DNA of 64,000 nt, from positions 5,248,001-5,312,000 of the forward strand of contig OZ255842.1 of assembly GCA_965277805.1 (NCBI GenBank). Reading direction: 5' to 3'. Below, piece by piece: positions 45,314-53,931 of the stretch (positions within the stretch are counted from its first letter, which is position 1; each line of letters starts with the position of its first letter). Origin of the DNA: Candidatus Lustribacter sp. (lineage in GTDB: Bacteria; Vulcanimicrobiota; Vulcanimicrobiia; Vulcanimicrobiales; Vulcanimicrobiaceae). The notes beneath the pieces are model-generated. The model made no database searches. It was not told the DNA's origin and saw only the letters and a program-made list of their open reading frames with translations. A program made the position numbers and the translations under genes.

Positions 45314-47073
45314 TGGATTCGCAATCGGCATCGCTTCCGAAGGTCCAGCTGAACCGCTGGCAGACGCTACGACTTACGGTCGTCGGCATCGTCGTCGCGT
45401 TCATGGTGCTCCGGGTGGTGCCGGACGTCTACCGCTTCATCGTGCCGCTGGGCACCTTCAACTACGCGACCGACGATAACGGCGTCGTCATCAAGGTGGC
45501 GCCCACGCGGGAGAAAGGCACCGACCCGCTGCTGGTGGGCGACAAGGTGCGCATCGATCGCATCCGGCCCTTCGACCGCAAGCCGGGCATTGCGCGCATC
45601 GGCTTCACGCAGTACAACTTCGACCGCTGGCTGCCGATCGAGCGCAACGGCGTCGAGCGCGTCGTTCATCTCAAGGCGATCACGGAGACGATGGCGGCCC
45701 GCGCGGTCGTGGGCTTGCGCATCCTTCTCTACGTGACGGCCGTGTGCTCCGCTGCGCTGCTGCTGATCGTCAACCCGCGGCTAGCGACGTTCGCGTTCTT
45801 CGTGTTCTGCTTGGGCGGCGCCGAGCCGACGACGTTTACCGATACGCTGTTCGATCCGCCATGGCGTGAGATCCCCGCTTGGATCGGCGACACGATTTCG
45901 GGGCAAGCTCCGTTCGCGCTGCTGCTCTTCGCGCTGTGCCTGGCCGTTCGCAGTCATCGCGCGCGCTTCGCGATCGCCGCGGTCGTCGGCGTCCTCGCGC
46001 TCGCGTTCGGCACATTACACGCCTACGACTCGTGGCGCGTCACGTACGGCGCGCTGCCGGCCGAGACGTATCGCTTCATTTACGCGCGCGCCGAGACGAT
46101 CACGAACGTGTTCACGGCGCTCGCTTTTGCCGCCGCGTTCATCCGCGCGCGCGGTGCGGAACGGCAGCGCGCCGCCTGGATCATCGCTGCGTTTGCCGTG
46201 GCGGGCGCGGGCCGGATTCTCTCCGAGCGGTTCTTCCCGGCGTACTTGAACTTCTGGGAAAATGGCACGCTGCTCTCGCTCTCGATCATCCCGGTCGTGG
46301 TGGTCTGGATCGCGGTCGTCAAACACCATTTCTTCGACGTCGATTTCATGGTCAGCCGCGCACTCGTCTACACCGCGATCACGGCGGCGGTGCTGTTCAT
46401 CGTCGGCGGCGCGGAAGAACTGCTGACATATCTCTTTTACAACAATACCAACCTCGCTTACGGGTTCACGATCGCCGTGTCGCTGGTGGTCGGTTCCACC
46501 TTCGGCCGCGTTCGCGATTTCCTCGAGGGCTTCGTCGACCGGTTCATCTTCCGCGAGCGGCACGCGCAGCGCAAGTCGCTCGAGCGGGTCGCGGCCCAGT
46601 TGCTCGATGCCGATGACGCCGCCGCGGTCTACAGCGTGCTATTGCACGAAGTCCCGAGCATCCTCGACCTCTCGTTCAGCGGTATCATGATGCGGCTGGC
46701 CGACGGAGGCTATACGCTCGCTCACGAGTGGAATTGGCCGCCCGAATGCGTGAACGAGCTGAGCCCCGACCATCCGCTAACTCGCGACATTTACAAGTCG
46801 CGTGGCGTGCTGCCCGAAGACGCGGTGCGGTCGACGATGGTGAAGGCGCTCTTTCCGAACGACCGCCTGACCTACGCGGCGCCGCTCTACTTCGACCGCA
46901 ACGTGTCGGCGCTCGTCCTCTACGGCCATAGCGTGTCCGGGCTCGACATCGATCCGCAAGAGCGCATCACGCTGATTCGGCTGATGTCCAACGCCTCGAT
47001 CGCGCTGAACGCGATCGAACTGGCGATGTACCGCGACGCGTTCACCGAGGAAGCGGCGCTACACCGTCAGTGA
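45313..47073 (+). CDS. Multi-TM membrane protein with a possible PDZ-like loop and a C-terminal GAF-like domain
   Basis: LLVGDKVRI segment, many TM helices, FDVDFMVSRALVY, VDRFIFR, AAPL...LVLYG...DPQER..L..L. Confidence 0.65.
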   Translation: MDSQSASLPKVQLNRWQTLRLTVVGIVVAFMVLRVVPDVYRFIVPLGTFNYATDDNGVVIKVAPTREKGTDPLLVGDKVRIDRIRPFDRKPGIARIGFTQYNFDRWLPIERNGVERVVHLKAITETMAARAVVGLRILLYVTAVCSAALLLIVNPRLATFAFFVFCLGGAEPTTFTDTLFDPPWREIPAWIGDTISGQAPFALLLFALCLAVRSHRARFAIAAVVGVLALAFGTLHAYDSWRVTYGALPAETYRFIYARAETITNVFTALAFAAAFIRARGAERQRAAWIIAAFAVAGAGRILSERFFPAYLNFWENGTLLSLSIIPVVVVWIAVVKHHFFDVDFMVSRALVYTAITAAVLFIVGGAEELLTYLFYNNTNLAYGFTIAVSLVVGSTFGRVRDFLEGFVDRFIFRERHAQRKSLERVAAQLLDADDAAAVYSVLLHEVPSILDLSFSGIMMRLADGGYTLAHEWNWPPECVNELSPDHPLTRDIYKSRGVLPEDAVRSTMVKALFPNDRLTYAAPLYFDRNVSALVLYGHSVSGLDIDPQERITLIRLMSNASIALNAIELAMYRDAFTEEAALHRQ

Positions 47074-47861
47074 CCGACGCCCTGGTAGCGCTGCAGCCCT
47101 AAACGCCAGAACAGGTAGGCAACGATCAGGAAGACGACGCCGATCAGCGGCGTGAGCATCCCGACCGCGAGCGGGAGGCCTAAGCCGTTGTCCGTCTTGT
47201 GCAAGAAGTACGATGCCGGGAAGTAGTTCATGAATCCGAACGGGATCACGAACGCCAGCAGCAGCCGAACGCCTTTGCCGTAGATGCTGAGCGGATAGCG
47301 CGTGAACTCTTGCTCCAGTTGCAACACGATCCAGCGCAGCGCGTCGACCTGCACGAACCAGAACGCGACGGTCGAGATCAGCAGCGCGATGCTCAGGTCG
47401 ATCAGCGCGCCGCCGGTCACAACGAGCGCGATCAGCGCCACGAAACCGGCCGTTACCGCCAGGTGATTGGCCGCGATCGCCACCACGAGGAACGCGATCG
47501 CGAGGACGAGCTCGTCGGGAAAGATCGCGCCGGGGGTAGAGATCACCTGAAAGAGTTCGTCGAGCGGGCGCACCAGCAGCCGGTCGAACTCGCCGTCGCG
47601 AATCCACTGCGGGATCTCGCCGACGGTCGAAAAGAACGTTGCGTTGAGCGCGTGGGCCGTCATCCACAGCCCGTAGAGAAACGCCATGTTGCGAAAGTCC
47701 CAGCCGTTCATCGACGGGAACGTCGTCAGCATCACCCACAACGCCGCAATCGCGGTCGCGTGGTAGACGATCGTGAAGCCGAACCACAGCAGAAAGTTCG
47801 TGCGGTATTCGAGCGTCGTGAGCAAGTTGATGCGCCAGTACTGGCGATAGACTTCTCGCAT
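47067..47861 (-). CDS. ABC-2 family permease (DUF990-like)
   Basis: YRTNF, IRDGEFDRLLVRP, YPLSIY, IPFGFMNYFP, RYQGVG. Confidence 0.88.
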   Translation of the reverse strand: MREVYRQYWRINLLTTLEYRTNFLLWFGFTIVYHATAIAALWVMLTTFPSMNGWDFRNMAFLYGLWMTAHALNATFFSTVGEIPQWIRDGEFDRLLVRPLDELFQVISTPGAIFPDELVLAIAFLVVAIAANHLAVTAGFVALIALVVTGGALIDLSIALLISTVAFWFVQVDALRWIVLQLEQEFTRYPLSIYGKGVRLLLAFVIPFGFMNYFPASYFLHKTDNGLGLPLAVGMLTPLIGVVFLIVAYLFWRLGLQRYQGVGH

Positions 47862-48658
47862 CAGCCGCCCTGCACGATCACGCGCCGGGCGCCCGCGCGC
47901 CAGATCACGGTCGCGATCAACGCAAGCACGGCGATCCAAAGCACCTGCAGGCTCATGTATTGAACGTACTGTTCGGGCTTGATTTGGCCGATGTAAATCA
48001 GCAGCGGCGTCGAAAACATCGAGGCGAACGGCAGCGCCACGATCGCTTGCTGGATGCCGGCCGGAAAGAACAGCAGCGGCACGATGCCGCCGCCGAGCAG
48101 ATCGGTCACCCAGGTGAGCATCAGCTGTACGGCGCTGATCTCGAGCGTCCAGAACGCGATGCAATTCAGGGTGAAGTTCAGGAAGAAGCCAACGAAGTAC
48201 GCGAGGAAAAAGCTGACGAGGAAGGCACCGAAGACCGCCGCGCTCGGCACGTCGATGTGGACGATCAAGAGCGCGAGCGCGAGCGACGGCACGATCAGCG
48301 CGGCGTGGAAGAGCACTTCGCCCGTGCCGTCGGCGAAGAGGTAGAGCGGAACGCTGATCGGTTTCATGAAGTCGACCACGATGCTGCCGTCGTGCAGCTT
48401 GTCGTGCAAGAGGCTCGTCTGATCGATGTCGAGGATCATGCCCATCAACAGCGCGACGGCCGAATACGTGATGATCGCGTGCAGCGGGACGCCGTGGGGC
48501 GCCGCGTTGCGCGCGTAGAGTGCCACCCACACGACGCGCAGCAGGTAGACGCGCACGGCGAGCGAGCCGATGCTGGTGAAAACTTCGAAGCGATAGGTCG
48601 CTTCGCGCGCGATCGCCTTCAGCATGAATTGGAAGTACGGTTCGAGCGCGAGCAGCAT
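47861..48658 (-). CDS. ABC-2 family permease (DUF990-like)
   Basis: DGSIVVDFMKP, GGIVPLLFFP, C-terminal VQGG. Confidence 0.88.
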   Translation of the reverse strand: MLLALEPYFQFMLKAIAREATYRFEVFTSIGSLAVRVYLLRVVWVALYARNAAPHGVPLHAIITYSAVALLMGMILDIDQTSLLHDKLHDGSIVVDFMKPISVPLYLFADGTGEVLFHAALIVPSLALALLIVHIDVPSAAVFGAFLVSFFLAYFVGFFLNFTLNCIAFWTLEISAVQLMLTWVTDLLGGGIVPLLFFPAGIQQAIVALPFASMFSTPLLIYIGQIKPEQYVQYMSLQVLWIAVLALIATVIWRAGARRVIVQGG

Positions 48659-49668
48659 CAGGCTTCCGGCACGTGGGCGGGCGGCTTGGCGTAGCCCTCG
48701 AGATAGAGCCGGCGCACGATTTCTTCCATCTCCGGTTCGACGATGGCGACGTCGGTGATCGCGTAGCGTTCGGTTACGCGGCGAATCAGCGCTTCGGCCG
48801 TGGTCGCGCGGCGATCGAAACGAAGCCAGACGATCGGCGCCTCGCGGTGTTCGATTTCGACGCCGGGCAGCGTGAAGCCGGGCTGCGGGTCTTTGAAGTG
48901 AACGACGAGCGTGCGGTGGGTACCGTACTCATCACGCAAACGTTCGAGCTTGCCGTCGTAGATCACCGTGCCCTCATCGATGAGGACGATGCGCTTGCAG
49001 AGGCGCTCGACATCGGCGAGATCGTGGGTCGTGAGGATCACCGTGGTACCGAGCCGTTTGTTGATGTCGGCGATGAATGCACGGATCGCTTCTTTGGCCA
49101 CCACGTCCAGTCCGATCGTCGGCTCGTCGAGGTAGACGATCTTCGGATCGTGCAGCAGAGCCGCGGCGAAGTCGCCGCGCATACGCTCGCCAAGCGAGAG
49201 CTGACGCACCGGCGTTGCCATGAACCGGTCGAGATCGAGGATCTCGACGAAGTGCGCGAGGTTCTCGCGGTAGCGGTCGCGCGGCACGCGGTAGATCGCG
49301 CGCAGCAGTTCGAACGACTCGCGCAGCGGCAGATCCCAATACAGCTGGCTGCGCTGGCCGAATACGACCCCGATGTTGCGGGCGTTCTGGCGGCGCTTCT
49401 CGTGGGGCACGATGCCGGCCACCTCGATCGAGCCGGAGGTCGGGACGAGGATCCCGGTCAGCATTTTGATCGTGGTCGACTTGCCCGCCCCATTGGGACC
49501 GATGTAGCCGACCACCTCGCCTTGCTCGACGGACATGCTCACGTCCTCAACGGCGACTTTTTCCTCGTACTCCCGCGAGAAAAGCGCCCCGATGGCTCCC
49601 CCCAGACCCTCGCCGCGGACAACCGAGCGGAACGTTTTCCGCAGAGCCCGCGTTTCGATGATTGGCAT
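48658..49668 (-). CDS. ABC transporter ATP-binding protein
   Basis: GPNGAGKST, LSLGERMR, YLDEPTIGLD, TTHD. Confidence 0.93.
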   Translation of the reverse strand: MPIIETRALRKTFRSVVRGEGLGGAIGALFSREYEEKVAVEDVSMSVEQGEVVGYIGPNGAGKSTTIKMLTGILVPTSGSIEVAGIVPHEKRRQNARNIGVVFGQRSQLYWDLPLRESFELLRAIYRVPRDRYRENLAHFVEILDLDRFMATPVRQLSLGERMRGDFAAALLHDPKIVYLDEPTIGLDVVAKEAIRAFIADINKRLGTTVILTTHDLADVERLCKRIVLIDEGTVIYDGKLERLRDEYGTHRTLVVHFKDPQPGFTLPGVEIEHREAPIVWLRFDRRATTAEALIRRVTERYAITDVAIVEPEMEEIVRRLYLEGYAKPPAHVPEA

Positions 49669-49845
49669 CAGGGAGCGATTCCCTGAGGCGGCGAAGCCTC
49701 CCGGCACACCGGCTCACCGTTTGTGTCCGGTTCCTTTTCTACGGAAAAGGTCCGGGTTGCGCGGCAGAGAAGCGACGCCGAGGGAACTTTCGTTCTTTGA
49801 GCGGAGGACTTCGCGACATTATTTACCGGAAGGGGGTGAGGTTCC

Positions 49846-49908
49846 ATGGCCGCTAAGAAAAAAGCAATGAAGAAAAAGACGATGAAGAAGACCCCGAAAA
49901 AGAAGTAA
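49846..49908 (+). CDS. 20-aa Lys-rich micro-protein MAAKKKAMKKKTMKKTPKKK
   Basis: GAAGGGGGTGA RBS upstream, ATG..TAA frame and a downstream intrinsic terminator; below the ORF-track size cutoff. Confidence 0.7.
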   Translation: MAAKKKAMKKKTMKKTPKKK

Positions 49909-49943
49909 ATACCGATCCGTTTTTTAGCTCTTATTCGAGAACC

Positions 49944-49975
49944 GAGCACGTGGCGTAAGCCGCGTGCTCATTTTT
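49944..49975 (+). terminator. Intrinsic terminator, possibly bidirectional
   Basis: GAGCACGTGGC-GTAA-GCCGCGTGCTC followed by ATTTTT. Confidence 0.75.
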
Positions 49976-51135
49976 CATTTGCCGCGGCCGACCATCGAGC
50001 GGGCGATCACGATGCGCTGGATCTGCTGAGTTCCCTCGTAAATTTGCGTAATTTTGGCGTCGCGCATCATTCGCTCCACGGGGTATTCGGTTGAATAGCC
50101 AAACCCGCCGAGTAACTGCACGGCATCCGTCGTAACGCTCATCGCTACATCGCCGCATTTGAGCTTTGCGATCGCCGACCACGTCGTGAGATCGTCGTCG
50201 CCGGCGTCGCACTTGCGCGCCGCTTCGTAGAGCAAGAGCCGGGCCGCCTCGACCTCGGTCTTCATGTCGGCCAGCATGAATTGCAGGCCCTGTTGCTGTG
50301 AGAGCGGCTTGCCGAAGGCGACCCGTCCCTTGAGGTACTCGGTCGCGTATTCGAGCGCGCCGGTGGCGATGCCGAGCGCTTGCGCCGCGATGCCGGGGCG
50401 CGATTTGTCGAGCACTTTCATGGCGATCTTGAAGCCGCCCCCTTCGGGGCCGAGCATGTTCGCGGCCGGCACGCGGCACTCGGTGAAGACGAGTTCGACC
50501 GTCGGCGAACCCCGGATGCCCATCTTTTTCTCGAGCTTCCCGACCGCGAAGCCCGGCGTGCCCCTCTCGACGACGAACGCGCTGATGCCGTTCGCGCCTT
50601 TCTCGGGATCGGTGACGGCGAAGACGGTCACGATGTCGGCGATGCTGCCCTGGGTGATCCAGATCTTCGTTCCGTCGAGCACGTAGTCGTCGCCGTCGCG
50701 GCCCGCACGCATGCGCATCGAGCCGGCCGCGTCGGAGCCTGAGCCCGCCTCGGTGAGCGCATACGCCGCCACCCATTCACCGCTCGCGAGTTTGGGCACG
50801 AAGCGCTGCTTTTGTTCTTCGCTGCCGCCGATGAGGATCGGCAGCGCGCCCAGCTCTTGCACGGCGATGATTAGGGCGCTCGACGCGCACGCCTTCGCCA
50901 CTTCTTCGACGACCTTAACGTAGGTCGCGAACGTGCCGCCGAGGCCGCCGTATTCCACCGGAAACGGAATCCCGAAGAGGTCGTTCTGCGCGAACAGCTT
51001 CTGGATGTCCCACGGGAACTCGCCGGTCGCATCGATCTCGGCCGCACGCGGTGCAACCTTCTCGCGCACGAGCTCGCGCACGGCATCGAGGATTAGCGCC
51101 TCCTCGTCGTCGTTCGGACCGCTGGTTAGTGCCAT
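49975..51135 (-). CDS. Acyl-CoA dehydrogenase
   Basis: ALTEAGSGSD, GTKIWIT, KMGIRGSPT, GRVAFGKP, MRDAKITQIYEGT. Confidence 0.93.
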   Translation of the reverse strand: MALTSGPNDDEEALILDAVRELVREKVAPRAAEIDATGEFPWDIQKLFAQNDLFGIPFPVEYGGLGGTFATYVKVVEEVAKACASSALIIAVQELGALPILIGGSEEQKQRFVPKLASGEWVAAYALTEAGSGSDAAGSMRMRAGRDGDDYVLDGTKIWITQGSIADIVTVFAVTDPEKGANGISAFVVERGTPGFAVGKLEKKMGIRGSPTVELVFTECRVPAANMLGPEGGGFKIAMKVLDKSRPGIAAQALGIATGALEYATEYLKGRVAFGKPLSQQQGLQFMLADMKTEVEAARLLLYEAARKCDAGDDDLTTWSAIAKLKCGDVAMSVTTDAVQLLGGFGYSTEYPVERMMRDAKITQIYEGTQQIQRIVIARSMVGRGK

Positions 51136-51288
51136 GCCCGCGTCGATTCGACCGTCAGCTTGCGCCGGCATGCCGTAAGGAGGGCAAGCATGCCAGCGTT
51201 AGTGTATAAACAAATCGAGCTTGAGAACCGAAGGGCTCTTAAAGCATGCACGGGGGGTGAGGGTGCTCCCTGCGGATAGGGTTCCAAC

Positions 51289-53931
51289 GTGACAGCTTTC
51301 GTCGGGTGGCGATCTGTTTTTGCTACGCTCGCGGCTCTGACCGTCGTTACGGGGCTCGGGTTAGCTTTCGCGCGGGGGCATAACGAAACGGTCAACGCGT
51401 TCGTGCCCGCGACCCTGTTTTTGGCGGCGCTGTTCGATTTCGCGACGTTTGCGATTTTAACGGCGTCGGAGCGCGTCGACGACGATCGGCCCAACCTGAT
51501 CCTCGCCGCCGCATTCATGGCAGCGGGCACATTTGCGCTCGTGAGTCTCGCGGTCGTCCCACCGCTTCCGGGCGTCCCGGCGCTGGTACCGGCGCCGGCG
51601 GGCTTTTCGCTGTGGATCTACTGGCTCGGCCACACCTACGTCGGCATCGCCGCACTCGTTTACGCCCAACTCCGTTCCATCGGACCCCGCCACCGCGACG
51701 CGCGCTTTACCAGTGCCGTAGCTGCGGGCGCCTTGGCTCTGTTCGCGGCCGCTGTGGCCGCGGCACTCACCGGCAGCGCGCTCGCACCCCTCGGAGCGTT
51801 GTTCGCCGCTCTCCTAGCAGGGGCGGTCTGCGCCGCGGGATGCGTCCGCCTGGCCTTGCTGCCGGAAAAGAACGCCGTCGAACGCGCGGTCGCAACGATG
51901 CTGTTGGCCATGACGCTCGACGTTGGAGTCGCGTGGGTGGCCGGCCATCGATTCACGTTTGGCTGGAGCGCGTCGCGGGTGTTGCTGCTTTTGGGCTCGG
52001 CCCTCGTCTTCTCTGCCGTGCTGCGGCGGCTCCTCGCCGAGCACGCACGCCTGCGGGACGTCGAGCAGGCGTTCGCGTCTGCGAGCCGCCGCGCAGCGCG
52101 TATTCGCGCGCTGTGGCATGTGTCGTCGAGCGACGCGCTCAACGATGCCGAGCACCTGCAGGCCGTCCTCGATGCCGGCCGCACTGCACTGCGCGTCGAT
52201 CACCCGATTTTCGGCATGATCTACCAAATCGAAGGTGACGAGGTCGTCGTGAACGCGATCTCCTGGTCGGGAGATGCCGAAGCGCATGCGGCGGCGCTGG
52301 CGGTCTTCGCTCCTTCCGTGCGCTTCCCGATCGGTCAAACGGCAGCGACGGAGCTCGTTTCGAGCGGCCGCACGCGTCACTGGAACGACATCGATCCACA
52401 CGATCCGCCATCCGGGTTGATCGGATTCGCGCAATGGACGAACGTTGTCGCCGCCACGTTCCAGATTGGGCGCGTAACGTATATTCTCGCGTTTGGAACG
52501 AGCGTTCCACTCGCGTCCGAGCCGTTCGCTGAAGACGATCTCGCCTTCGTCGACGTACTCGCATCGCAACTCTCGCATCGTTTCTATGAACGCGAGCAGC
52601 TGGCGCGGATTCGCTACCAAATGGAGCACGACGCGCTTACGGGCCTGTGTAATCGGACCGAGTTCCGTAAAGCAGTACGCGAACGGGTAAGCGCCGGGAG
52701 CCCGTTTGCCGTAGTTATGCTCGACTTAGACGGCTTTCGCTTTATCAACGAGACTGCCGGCCATCTCATTGGTGACGAGATTTTGGTTGAAGTCGCGGCA
52801 ACGCTCTCCGGCTTGCGCGAAGGCGACGTCGTGGCGCGTTTGGCCGGCGACGATTTCGGCATCGTCATGAATGACATCGGGAAGAACGGCACGCTCGCCG
52901 CCGGACTGCAGCGCTACGCAGCGGTGTTCGACCGTCCGTTTCATACCGGCGATCGCGAAGGGAAACGCTTCCTGCCGGTTGCGGCCTCGATCGGAGCAGC
53001 GGTCTTTCCCAACGACGGGAAGACGGTAGACGACTTGGTGCGATGCGCCGACGTTGCGCTCGATGCCGCAAAGCAGCGCGGCGGGGGAACGACGGTTCTC
53101 TATGCCGATTCGATGGCGGCGACGAGCAACGACCTCTACCGGTTCCGGGGCGAACTGGTGGAGGCGTTTCAAACCGACGCCTTCATTTTGGAATACCAAC
53201 CGACGTTCGATCTGAGCACTGGCCGTACGGTGGGAGCAGAAGCACTAGTACGCTGGGATCATCCGCGGCGGGGCCGGCTACAACCGGCGGAGTTCGTCGA
53301 GTTCGCGGAGCGGTCGGGGCTCGGCGGCCGTCTCGCACGATGGGTGCTGAGACGGGTGTGCGATGACCTGGGACCACTCGAACTGCCGCCGGGATTCCGG
53401 TGCTATTTTAACCTCCCGGCGCATCTCTTGGACGATCCGGCGTTTTTAACCGAGTTGGAAACCCAGCTCGAGGGCGTTCCGAGCCTGGCGCGGCATCTCG
53501 GGGTCGAGATCACCGAGAGCGAAGCGATGCAAAACGCGGAGCGAACCGTTCAGGCACTGCGGAACATCCAGGAAATCGGCCTACGAGTCGCGATCGACGA
53601 TTTCGGTACGGGCTACTCGTCGATGGCGTATCTCAAGCGTTTTCCGATCGACGTCGTCAAGATCGACCGCTCGTTCATATCCGGTTTACCGGACGACGAG
53701 AAGGACGCCGCTCTCGACGAGATGTTTCTTCAGCTGACTCGGCAATTCGGATTCGTGAGTCTGGCTGAAGGCATCGAAACCGAGAACCAAGCGGCTTGGC
53801 TGCGCGGTCACGGATGCATGCTCGGGCAAGGCTTCCTCATGTCTCGGCCGCTGCCGGTCGAGGCCTTTGTAAACCACATGCAAGCCGAGAAAATGCTCGA
53901 TTCGCTTTCGATCGAGTCGGCAACGTTATAG
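51289..53931 (+). CDS. Membrane sensor-GAF-GGDEF-EAL protein
   Basis: About seven N-terminal TM helices; HDALTGLCNR, RLAGDDF (variant GGDEF), EALVRW, EITES, DDFGTGYSS, AEGIE. Confidence 0.92.
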   Translation: MTAFVGWRSVFATLAALTVVTGLGLAFARGHNETVNAFVPATLFLAALFDFATFAILTASERVDDDRPNLILAAAFMAAGTFALVSLAVVPPLPGVPALVPAPAGFSLWIYWLGHTYVGIAALVYAQLRSIGPRHRDARFTSAVAAGALALFAAAVAAALTGSALAPLGALFAALLAGAVCAAGCVRLALLPEKNAVERAVATMLLAMTLDVGVAWVAGHRFTFGWSASRVLLLLGSALVFSAVLRRLLAEHARLRDVEQAFASASRRAARIRALWHVSSSDALNDAEHLQAVLDAGRTALRVDHPIFGMIYQIEGDEVVVNAISWSGDAEAHAAALAVFAPSVRFPIGQTAATELVSSGRTRHWNDIDPHDPPSGLIGFAQWTNVVAATFQIGRVTYILAFGTSVPLASEPFAEDDLAFVDVLASQLSHRFYEREQLARIRYQMEHDALTGLCNRTEFRKAVRERVSAGSPFAVVMLDLDGFRFINETAGHLIGDEILVEVAATLSGLREGDVVARLAGDDFGIVMNDIGKNGTLAAGLQRYAAVFDRPFHTGDREGKRFLPVAASIGAAVFPNDGKTVDDLVRCADVALDAAKQRGGGTTVLYADSMAATSNDLYRFRGELVEAFQTDAFILEYQPTFDLSTGRTVGAEALVRWDHPRRGRLQPAEFVEFAERSGLGGRLARWVLRRVCDDLGPLELPPGFRCYFNLPAHLLDDPAFLTELETQLEGVPSLARHLGVEITESEAMQNAERTVQALRNIQEIGLRVAIDDFGTGYSSMAYLKRFPIDVVKIDRSFISGLPDDEKDAALDEMFLQLTRQFGFVSLAEGIETENQAAWLRGHGCMLGQGFLMSRPLPVEAFVNHMQAEKMLDSLSIESATL

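Follow-up and report, generated by a model that had tools for sequence, protein, structure and literature searches.

A gene of only 20 codons that encodes an extremely lysine-rich peptide lies on the + strand of the 64-kb stretch of Candidatus Lustribacter sp. DNA analyzed here (termed the window), where gene callers miss it. This micro-gene (49846-49908, with its TAA stop at 49906-49908) translates to MAAKKKAMKKKTMKKTPKKK, in which 11 of the 20 residues are Lys and residues 16-19 read TPKK, and the peptide has a mass of 2334 Da (2203 Da with Met removed; monoisotopic values 2332.44 and 2201.40 Da) and a computed net charge of about +10.5 to +11. It is very probably a genuine gene, and it had been noticed in a previous sequence-only reading, which described a stand-alone Lys-rich open reading frame (ORF) exactly as it is found and suggested that a dedicated + strand gene had been overlooked by callers. 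This suggestion is supported, as the reading frame, start, stop, Shine-Dalgarno (SD) sequence and terminator are all conserved; the frame and ribosome binding site, on whose conservation in relatives the claim had been staked, are kept. That reading did not mention the ECF-type promoter motif, the conserved coupling to a divergent ABC-2 exporter or the wide distribution of the class, all of which are described below. In histone H1, S/TPKK motifs bind the minor groove of DNA, and the charge of MAAKKKAMKKKTMKKTPKKK together with its TPKK motif suggests that it may bind polyanions (DNA, RNA, polyphosphate). Our tentative first choice is that it would be a stress-induced intracellular polycation that binds polyanions, chiefly DNA and RNA. 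In what follows the genome that contains the window is G000, its relatives are numbered from G001 onward, and additional loci have L numbers.

The micro-gene and its expression signals

The elements of the micro-gene cassette, all of them on the + strand of the window, are:

49769-49773, + strand, degenerate −35-like element GAAGC, N17 upstream of CGTT, of the extracytoplasmic function (ECF) sigma type
49784-49795, + strand, invariant block GAAC-TTTC-GTTC, which contains the −10-like CGTT(C) (49791-49795), forms a palindrome over the −10 and is invariant in 7/7 same-genus sequences
49801-49814, + strand, small hairpin at the predicted transcript 5′ end, with a 5-pair stem, GCGGAGGACTTCGC
49830-49839, + strand, extended SD AAGGGGGTGA, 6 nt ahead of the ATG and inside GGAAGGGGGTGA (49828-49839)
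49846-49908, + strand, micro-gene, 20 codons and TAA
49927-49943, + strand, block GCTCTTATTCGAGAACC of the 3′ untranslated region (UTR), between stop and terminator, with invariant columns GC.CTTATTCG..A.CC in the same-genus alignment
49944-49975, + strand, intrinsic terminator, consisting of the hairpin GAGCACGTGGC-GTAA-GCCGCGTGCTC (49944-49969) followed by A and TTTTT (49971-49975)

The ribosome binding site that had been read ahead of the ATG is indeed present within GGAAGGGGGTGA, and because the 16S rRNA of G000 ends ...GGATCACCTCCTTTCT, AAGGGGGTGA is a 10-base complement of the ribosomal anti-SD, pairing with it over 10 nt with one G.U. The same-strand hairpin with a GTAA loop and T tract, also described beforehand, is found with its 11 pairs (8 G-C and one G.U), its 4-nt loop and the tail ATTTTTCATT, so that 49944-49975 has both the GC-rich hairpin and the U tract on the transcribed strand that characterize an intrinsic terminator. 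The T run follows the stem on the + strand only, and the hairpin has undergone compensatory changes in three relatives (G006, G002, and G007 in the same-genus alignment). The stop codon (49975-49977) of the neighboring acyl-CoA dehydrogenase (ACAD) gene overlaps the final T of the T tract, and the hairpin is therefore also situated directly 3′ of this convergent gene. Between stop and terminator, other genera have kindred YTYATTCGA or TCAGTCATCATCC motifs, and conserved blocks of the 3′ UTR can be sorted by group, with CTTATTCGAGA in the window's genus and TCAGTCATCATCC and AGCAATAAT in two further groups (L073-L083, L101, L152).

The predicted transcript (49801-49976) folds with −48.5 kcal/mol (z −1.98), which is owed mostly to the terminator, and it is mostly open outside the terminator in the minimum free energy (MFE) fold. 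The 5′-proximal hairpin appears in the MFE folds of 14/14 relatives folded, a set that had no control. In some relatives' MFE folds UCAUCC of the 3′ UTR is able to pair with GGGUGA of the SD, and sequestration of the SD by the 3′ UTR was considered and rejected, as it appears in some of these folds only and is inconsistent across relatives. Four sequencing runs, all from one study, contain the window stretch, and none of them is recorded as RNA.

With 38% GC and 54% A, the micro-gene differs in base composition from the genome in which it is embedded (5,533,281 bases, 64.3% GC). When all of G000 was scanned for ORFs of 12-60 codons in which Lys makes up at least 35%, eight were obtained. The MAAKKKAMKKKTMKKTPKKK ORF and its internal start account for two of them, and a GGGGGTG-type ribosome site precedes none of the remaining six (0/6). 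Two of these six resemble Lys/Ala/Pro-rich ends of longer frames, and a protein search of G000 with MAAKKKAMKKKTMKKTPKKK matched a single place. Lys/Ala/Pro-rich stretches, e.g., AAPKKKTPAKKKTAAKK, that resemble H1-like tails of longer proteins occur outside the window at G000:C1:1679030-1679146 and 5524270-5524425.

Conservation of the reading frame

A DNA search found the whole region in six of the seven other same-genus genomes (G001-G004, G006, and G007), and in the resulting seven-sequence alignment the ATG, frame and stop are kept, with one 3-nt in-frame insertion in the micro-ORF of G001. The seventh genome, G005 (94% complete), has neither the micro-gene, according to the pattern searches, nor the partner permease paralogue that is described below. 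Changes between AAA and AAG and between ACG and ACC are synonymous, and the spacer residues alternate among M, V, A, and S. Variable columns number 14/63 within the ORF (4, 2, and 8 by codon position), 64/99 in the 99 columns upstream of it and 21/35 in the 3′ spacer, and the ORF is the best-conserved portion of the intergenic region. An ORF of 93 codons also spans this DNA on the minus strand, and its third positions coincide with those of the + frame; no ribosome site accompanies it, however, and a 1-nt deletion disrupts it in G002. At the level of sequence comparison, purifying selection can be seen to act on the reading frame.

The coding nature of the class was assessed with 153 distinct micro-ORFs among the matches listed from the pattern searches described below, using the fact that the pattern fixes the start and leaves the end free. 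In frame 0 the stop follows directly after the last Lys codon in 148/153, and in frames 1 and 2 this is so in 0/153, the median distance to the next stop in those two frames being 21 and 13 codons. The residue composition of the 153 is K 54%, A 24%, M 6%, P 4%, G 4%, T 3%, S 2%, V 1.3%, R 0.6%, and E 0.1%, with D/E near zero, and such scarcity of R and E indicates that single AAG to AGG or GAG transitions are selected against. The peptides are devoid of a hydrophobic stretch and contain scarcely any hydrophobic residues beyond Met, Ala, and Val. The label of protamine-like that the sequence-only reading had attached to the peptide fits poorly with a class that has 54% Lys vs. 0.6% Arg, and the likeness to H1 tails, which it also proposed, is closer. 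The 153 ORFs end in TAA (78), TAG (73), or TGA (2); in long ORFs of G000 with high GC at third positions, used as a proxy, TGA is found 300 times, TAG 236 and TAA 198, and TGA is thus nearly unused after poly-Lys ends. A terminator-like site occurs within 90 nt after the ORF in 66/115 class members vs. 51/575 random positions.

Spread of the class

Genomes were searched with a strict pattern, SD-N6-10-ATG SCN GCN AAR AAR AAR, the reversed pattern serving as control. It matched in 44/401 genomes of the phylum (control 0), and these matches were confined to the window's family (43/296 and G000), with 0/104 phylum genomes outside the family. When the second and third codons were relaxed, 40/201 family genomes in 14/78 genera matched (control 0) and the N-termini MAMKKK, MAGKKK, and MAKKKK were added; these counts are lower bounds, as variants in G060 and G061 escape the patterns. 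Searching for ATG SCN GCN AAR AAR AAR in the absence of any SD gave 76 places in 57/201 family genomes and nine places for the reversed control, counted by hand. Thirty loci fetched from this search contained 32 matches. Thirteen of these are ORFs that span 16-21 codons, and GGGGGTG stands just upstream in 12 of the 13. The other matches are either the N-terminal ends of longer proteins, many of them rich in Lys, or chance frames of 6-8 codons.

Among species-representative genomes the strict pattern was found in at least 120 stretches with labels of more than ten phyla, and chance would be expected to give about one by our own estimate, which assumes uniform composition. Among the matches listed, 114 of 125 ORFs have at most 30 codons, nine have 31-100 and two are longer. 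Their record labels include Nitrospirota (many), Eremiobacterota/Vulcanimicrobiota, Verrucomicrobiota, Methylomirabilota, Patescibacteria groups, and Chloroflexota, and also Myxococcota, Phycisphaerae, Elusimicrobia, Thermoanaerobaculia, Atribacteria, Bipolaricaulota, and some DPANN archaea. The identical 20-residue peptide MPAKKKAAKKTAKKKSSKKK is encoded at L085, L102, and L142 (and also at L171 and L193), which are labelled Thermoanaerobaculia, Saccharimonadales, and Limnocylindria, and one peptide under three phylum labels points to mis-binning or recent transfer. Among viral contigs there was one pattern match, a 12-residue ORF. No conserved neighbor recurs from one phylum to another; at the Nitrospirota-labelled loci an NTase-HEPN pair precedes the micro-gene, and DivIC and GH57 follow it.

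Two Nitrospirota-labelled loci (L150 and L201) contain ORFs of 82 and 75 codons that consist of a (KKKAT)n repeat and share their N-terminus and SD with the micro-genes, which suggests a gradual transition between micro-genes and H1-like repeat proteins. Micro-genes are also found in tandem, the two members of a pair being separated by 120-300 nt, at L104, L114, L115, L144, L161, L267, L268, L042, L043, L073, and L081, under the labels Nitrospirota, Methylomirabilales, and Eremiobacterota. In G113 a 293-nt tandem duplication extends from upstream of the −35 exactly to the terminator, and in G020 and G061 the cassette is inverted relative to its neighbors. The cassette is an autonomous unit.

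The searches included unpublished genomes, namely G015 and G036 in the genus DNA search; G162, G064, and G073 in the pattern tallies; G052, G064, G044, G073, G042, and G051 in the set of htrA loci; and G064, G162, G130, G141, G052, G051, G015, G189, G042, G121, G073, G182, and G044 in the permease search. The copies from G162 and G064 are counted within the sets of 13, 37, 58, and 153 micro-genes.

Linkage to an ABC-2 transporter paralogue

Both neighbors of the micro-gene are encoded on the minus strand, as the sequence-only reading had stated. On one side is an operon for an exporter of the ATP-binding cassette (ABC) type and on the other the ACAD gene, as follows:

47067-49668, − strand, ABC-2 exporter operon, divergent from the micro-gene, encoding an ATPase and two permeases
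48658-49668, − strand, DrrA-like ABC ATPase (Pfam PF00005, PF13732)
47861-48658, − strand, ABC-2 permease 1 (PF06182)
47067-47861, − strand, ABC-2 permease 2 (PF06182)
49975-51171, − strand, ACAD, convergent with the micro-gene

The convergent neighbor varies by genus, being ACAD here and an SRPBCC-type gene elsewhere. Beyond ACAD and divergent from it is a gene (51289-53931) for an 880-residue GGDEF-EAL protein of cyclic di-GMP turnover.

A tblastn search with the window ATPase showed that 45/58 distinct own-phylum copies of the micro-gene adjoin an ATPase orthologue, in kin that are not independent of each other, the module being found in roughly 14-16 genera. In 44/58 the micro-gene is divergent from the orthologue (70-100% identity), with a gap of 120-240 nt, or of 397-463 nt where the micro-gene is the second of a tandem pair. 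In G061 the order is micro-gene, terminator and then the start of a co-directional ATPase gene about 40 nt on, and the cassette stands about 110 nt ahead of the ATPase. Twelve of the 58 copies have no ATPase orthologue within 700 nt and one could not be judged.

A search with permease 1 matched 185/201 family genomes, in two classes. The class with at least 61% identity, a line that was set after viewing the list and for which the tree described next is better evidence, is present in 39/201 family genomes, and all 39 are micro-gene-positive, 37 by pattern and two (G060 and G061, which have variant micro-genes beside the ABC operon) on inspection. Three micro-gene-positive genomes (G084, G100, and G180) have no permease match of at least 61%, and two of these are fragmented assemblies. 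In a quick IQ-TREE tree of 56 permease sequences, read with row L311 left out, a branch with SH-aLRT 100 has on one side all 21 micro-gene-adjacent permeases and four copies from genus g14, and on the other side 24 copies from elsewhere (all the correctly translated ones) and five further copies. In g14 the ABC paralogue has no adjacent micro-gene, yet these genomes have one or two micro-genes elsewhere. No micro-ORF is found beside the universal ABC paralogue of G000. Linkage of the micro-gene to an ABC-2 exporter paralogue is conserved within its phylum. This phylum is taken to be Eremiobacterota, because that name or a synonym of it appears in the titles of records with the same ABC-linked cassette. 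Outside that phylum an ABC ATPase lies within 1 kb in 0/108 loci among the matches listed, which indicates that the class as a whole needs no exporter.

A putative promoter of the ECF-sigma type

The −35 of the window varies within the genus, reading GAAAC in G004, G006, and G007 and AGAAC in G002, in the latter case after a compensating 1-nt deletion, and in other genera it is GGAAC. The motif G[GA]AAC-N16-18-CGTT, with CGTT 41-59 nt before the SD, is present in 29/37 distinct own-phylum copies vs. 44/2920 random 130-nt windows, a count to be taken as descriptive since the expression was composed after the sequences had been inspected. Among the matches listed it occurs in 4/109 genome-contig loci, all four labelled Eremiobacterota. 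The own-phylum motif equals two published ECF consensus sequences, that of EcfG, GGAAC-N16-CGTT (PMC7083833), and that of SigH/SigE of C. glutamicum, GGAAC-N17-18-cGTT (PMC10012870). A scan of 49400-50200 for promoters of the sigma-70 type gave no sites, and promoters of the housekeeping type differ in this family, an example being GTGAC(A)-N17-GAGTA before htrA.

The palindrome over the −10 may be an operator or a structural element, and in other genera CCAAC-N3-4-GTTGG replaces GAAC-N4-GTTC. A LexA/SOS box, of the kind resembling a Cheo box, was considered for GAAC-TTTC-GTTC and rejected, as SOS sites of G000 read TCGAAC-N4-GTTCGA and the other genera have CCAAC-N3-4-GTTGG. These G000 boxes, of the Gram-positive or actinobacterial type, are at G000:C1:929491 and 4546701, before recA (e.g., by 169 nt) and a RecA-like gene.

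Two of the 16 Sigma70_r2 matches in G000 are preceded by GGAAC or GAAAC-N16-CGTA, and one of these two, an ECF sigma factor paired with a zf-HC2 anti-sigma factor (G000:C1:~3656490-3657661), has GGAAC-N16-CGTA upstream. The motif expression matches 386 times in G000, 25 times with an SD and a start downstream, and these matches are not interpretable as a regulon. An HtrA-like protease is encoded just beyond the end of the window (G000:C1:5312672-5313910), and in several genomes its distance from the micro-gene is 15-20 kb. Upstream of htrA is GGAAC-N18-CGTT in the window's genus and GTGAC(A)-N17-GAGTA in most other genera, and a regulon shared with htrA was rejected as too weakly indicated, the strict ECF motif being upstream in 6/30 htrA loci vs. 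10/600 control windows. At the Limnocylindria-labelled L142 the micro-gene is directly behind a small ORF with the anti-sigma motif HxxxCxxC and has a promoter of its own, TTGACA-N17-TAGATA.

Database and literature searches

Matches to MAAKKKAMKKKTMKKTPKKK were not found in NCBIfam (0 at E up to 1), in Pfam (0 families at E up to 10, for MAAKKKAMKKKTMKKTPKKK and three relatives), or among PDB chains (0 at E up to 10 with phmmer, a weak test with a low-complexity query), and tools based on hidden Markov models discount poly-Lys micro-peptides as low complexity. A 75-residue relative matched PF07382 below significance (E 0.96, 10 bits vs. a cut-off of 40). PF08213 (bS22) gave 0 matches at E up to 1 in a six-frame search of all of G000, and the control was detected in C. 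glutamicum. None of eight Rfam matches at E up to 10 came near threshold, the best having 20.7 bits vs. a threshold of 56.8. Exact look-up of MAAKKKAMKKKTMKKTPKKK and seven relatives in a collection of 15 billion proteins returned 0/8, and a search for near homologues of a 41-residue relative gave 4857 candidates on the basis of shared words, none of which had an E of 0.1 or below. In the literature search the string MAAKKK was unmatched and nothing on poly-Lys micro-genes was returned. The word lysine is absent from the main texts of GMSC (PMC11364881) and sORFdb (PMC11796252), whose supplements or databases may hold such ORFs. Within the databases and literature searched, the class is found neither annotated nor in print.

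Discussion

According to the reading that we tentatively favor, a self-contained cassette of about 210 nt would give rise to a transcript of about 175 nt and a 20-residue peptide with a charge of about +11. Transcription would start near 49801 from the ECF-sigma-type promoter, and a promoter of this type would mean that the gene is turned on by a stress sigma factor. A burst of peptide would result from the long SD, the lack of structure in the A-rich ORF, the hairpin at the 5′ end and the strength of the terminator. The peptide, composed of KKK blocks with small-residue spacers and a TPKKK end, would have no fold, and its action would depend on charge only, as with H1 tails and polyamines. 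Polyanions within the cell, chiefly DNA and RNA including ribosomes, would be bound and thereby neutralized, compacted or shielded, and in the window's family the partner ABC-2 pump would set or remove the peptide. An intracellular role is ranked first because the class overall lacks an exporter, a signal and hydrophobic character.

Several points weigh against this reading. The tight and long-lived coupling to the ABC-2 paralogue is no less compatible with export of the peptide than with a role inside the cell, and the patchy occurrence in 14/78 genera indicates that the gene is dispensable. The strict ECF motif fails in the window itself, where GAAGC-N17-CGTT makes the promoter a weak version of the motif because its −35 reads GAAGC; the motif was moreover defined after the fact, and none of the 16 Sigma70_r2 matches of G000 could be assigned to the micro-gene. 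As to the class, phylum labels are those of depositors' record titles, in which labels of metagenome-assembled genomes may be wrong, and membership across phyla means a match to a pattern in which the SD and six initial codons are set in advance, not demonstrated descent, with counts that are lower bounds.

The most serious competitor, somewhat unlikely in our judgment, is that the peptide would be a polycation that is exported or acts at the envelope, either as the cargo of the divergent ABC-2 transporter or as a compound for which the transporter provides immunity or clearance. Its targets might be, e.g., lipopolysaccharide, exopolymers, extracellular DNA or the membranes of competitors, and it would be a ribosomally made counterpart of poly-lysine antimicrobials. 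Modules of a peptide and an ABC-2 transporter exist (LanFEG, McbEF), and this proposal would account for the divergent arrangement in 44/58 copies and the co-directional one in G061, for the placement of all adjacent permeases on one side of an SH-aLRT 100 branch, and for the presence of the micro-gene in every one of the 39 genomes that have the permease of at least 61% identity, with G005 lacking both. It would also fit the co-occurrence of unlinked micro-gene and paralogue in g14, a promoter of the type used in extracytoplasmic stress, and a net charge of −2 for permease 1 vs. +5 for that of the universal paralogue, although this is a single pair compared. However, neither a signal or leader sequence nor any segment of hydrophobic or amphipathic character can be recognized in MAAKKKAMKKKTMKKTPKKK, modification or immunity genes do not adjoin the micro-gene, 12/58 own-phylum copies have no ATPase orthologue within 700 nt, an ABC ATPase lies within 1 kb in 0/108 listed loci outside the phylum, and the linkage itself is tempered by kinship among the roughly 14-16 genera and by the post hoc 61% cut-off. 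Quite improbable is a stoichiometric ribosome-bound micro-protein, of the kind of eL41, bS22, bL37, and bTHX, that would occupy a groove in the rRNA. Size and charge match, genes of this kind are routinely overlooked by callers, and the expression signals (a 10-nt SD and an A-rich ORF) are very strong, but the searches of Pfam and PDB (E up to 10) and of G000 with PF08213 (E up to 1) gave nothing, the peptides are of low complexity, vary from 11 to 30 residues and have 0.6% Arg, ribosomal genes are not recurrent neighbors, and the predicted promoter is of the ECF and not the growth-rate type. Nor is the gene constant within its lineage, being found in 14/78 family genera and absent from G005 of the same genus.

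Two further explanations would assign the function to the RNA. That the cassette is a non-coding, purine-rich small RNA, or a dual-function RNA with an active, conserved 3′ tail, is very improbable. The invariant blocks of the 3′ UTR are consistent with it, third-position changes between AAA and AAG fit either reading, AAR repeats resemble ARN motifs, and the SD pairs with UCAUCC of the 3′ UTR in some relatives' MFE folds. On the other hand, that pairing is inconsistent among relatives, the fold z of −1.98 is due mostly to the terminator, and the best Rfam match has 20.7 bits vs. a threshold of 56.8. A non-coding RNA would also be at odds with the ATG, the SD spacing and an in-frame stop after the last Lys in 148/153 vs. 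0/153 in other frames, and with the near absence of drift from AAG to AGG or GAG (R 0.6%, E 0.1%). Least credible of all is a regulatory short ORF, which would act either as a Lys-codon leader that controls read-through of the terminator (attenuation) or by convergent antisense transcription into ACAD. As in classical attenuators, a short ORF rich in one residue is followed by a terminator, here 36 nt later, and in G061 the cassette is co-directional and about 110 nt ahead of the ABC ATPase. Such a leader would, however, have no co-directional gene downstream of it in the window and in 44/58 copies, the convergent neighbor differs between genera, an alternative antiterminator is not evident in the fold, and the peptide sequence is conserved.

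Comparison with known systems

The closest likeness of the favored intracellular polycation is to chlamydial Hc2/HctB (PF07382), the C-terminal tail of H1 and the Lys-rich tails of actinobacterial HU, as these are analogous K/A/P-rich, low-complexity polycations with presumably charge-driven binding of nucleic acids. MAAKKKAMKKKTMKKTPKKK has the Lys/Ala/Pro-rich composition and the S/TPKK-type motif of H1-like proteins and does not give a significant match to the PF07382 or PF07432 models. It differs from Hc2 and H1 in that it has 20 residues and no globular or dimerizing domain, and its gene belongs to a separate mini-cassette with a putative ECF-type promoter and with an ABC-2 transporter as partner. 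With eL41, bS22, bL37, and bTHX the peptide shares a length of 20-35 residues, extreme basicity and a tendency to be missed by annotation pipelines. These tiny ribosomal peptides are Arg-rich, conserved in position and constant within lineages, whereas the poly-Lys class is Lys-only (R 0.6%), variable in length and patchy.

In LanFEG and McbEF, as here, a small peptide gene adjoins a DrrA-like ATPase and two ABC-2 permeases. The window ATPase matches the NCBIfam "lantibiotic protection ABC" model at 2.9e-41, which is under the cut-off, and the similarity is generic to ABC-2 ATPases. A transporter that appears dedicated is present (45/58 adjacent, on its own side of the tree), whereas a leader, a signal and a hydrophobic core are absent, and unlike the peptides of those systems that of the micro-gene has no Cys/Ser/Thr core, modifying enzymes or hydrophobicity. 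The attenuator leaders of his, trp, thr, and leu are also ORFs dominated by the codons of one residue with an intrinsic terminator close behind; in contrast to them, the micro-gene has no downstream co-directional operon (G061 excepted), the sequence of its peptide is conserved, and the cassette constitutes an autonomous, mobile unit. Polyamines and epsilon-poly-L-lysine are likewise small, flexible polycations that bind polyanions, a functional analogy only, and the micro-peptide differs from epsilon-poly-L-lysine in being gene-encoded, ribosomally made and alpha-linked, with no biosynthetic enzymes.

Significance

Genes of 11-30 codons are under the length limits of standard callers, and hence the whole class, despite its strong expression signals and marks of selection, would be missing from every annotation. 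A broader proposal, which we consider unlikely, is that a hidden, multi-phylum class of encoded oligo-lysines of 11-30 residues, each produced by a high-output mini-cassette, would serve as a switchable polycation, the ribosomal equivalent of polyamines or poly-lysine. In Eremiobacterota the cassette would have developed into a stress module, wired to an ECF sigma factor and with a dedicated ABC-2 pump to export or clear the peptide. If this two-part module were real, it would be a new kind of peptide-transporter system. The putative ECF-type promoter and the dedicated ABC-2 paralogue of Eremiobacterota offer a concrete handle on function, and the cassette is small enough to be synthesized and assayed directly, making it a tiny model system. 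Should these peptides be abundant polycations, they would have a bearing on nucleoid compaction, on the charge balance of ribosomes and RNA, and on stress survival in major uncultured phyla, and they would constitute a gene-encoded, regulatable charge layer beside Mg2+ and polyamines.

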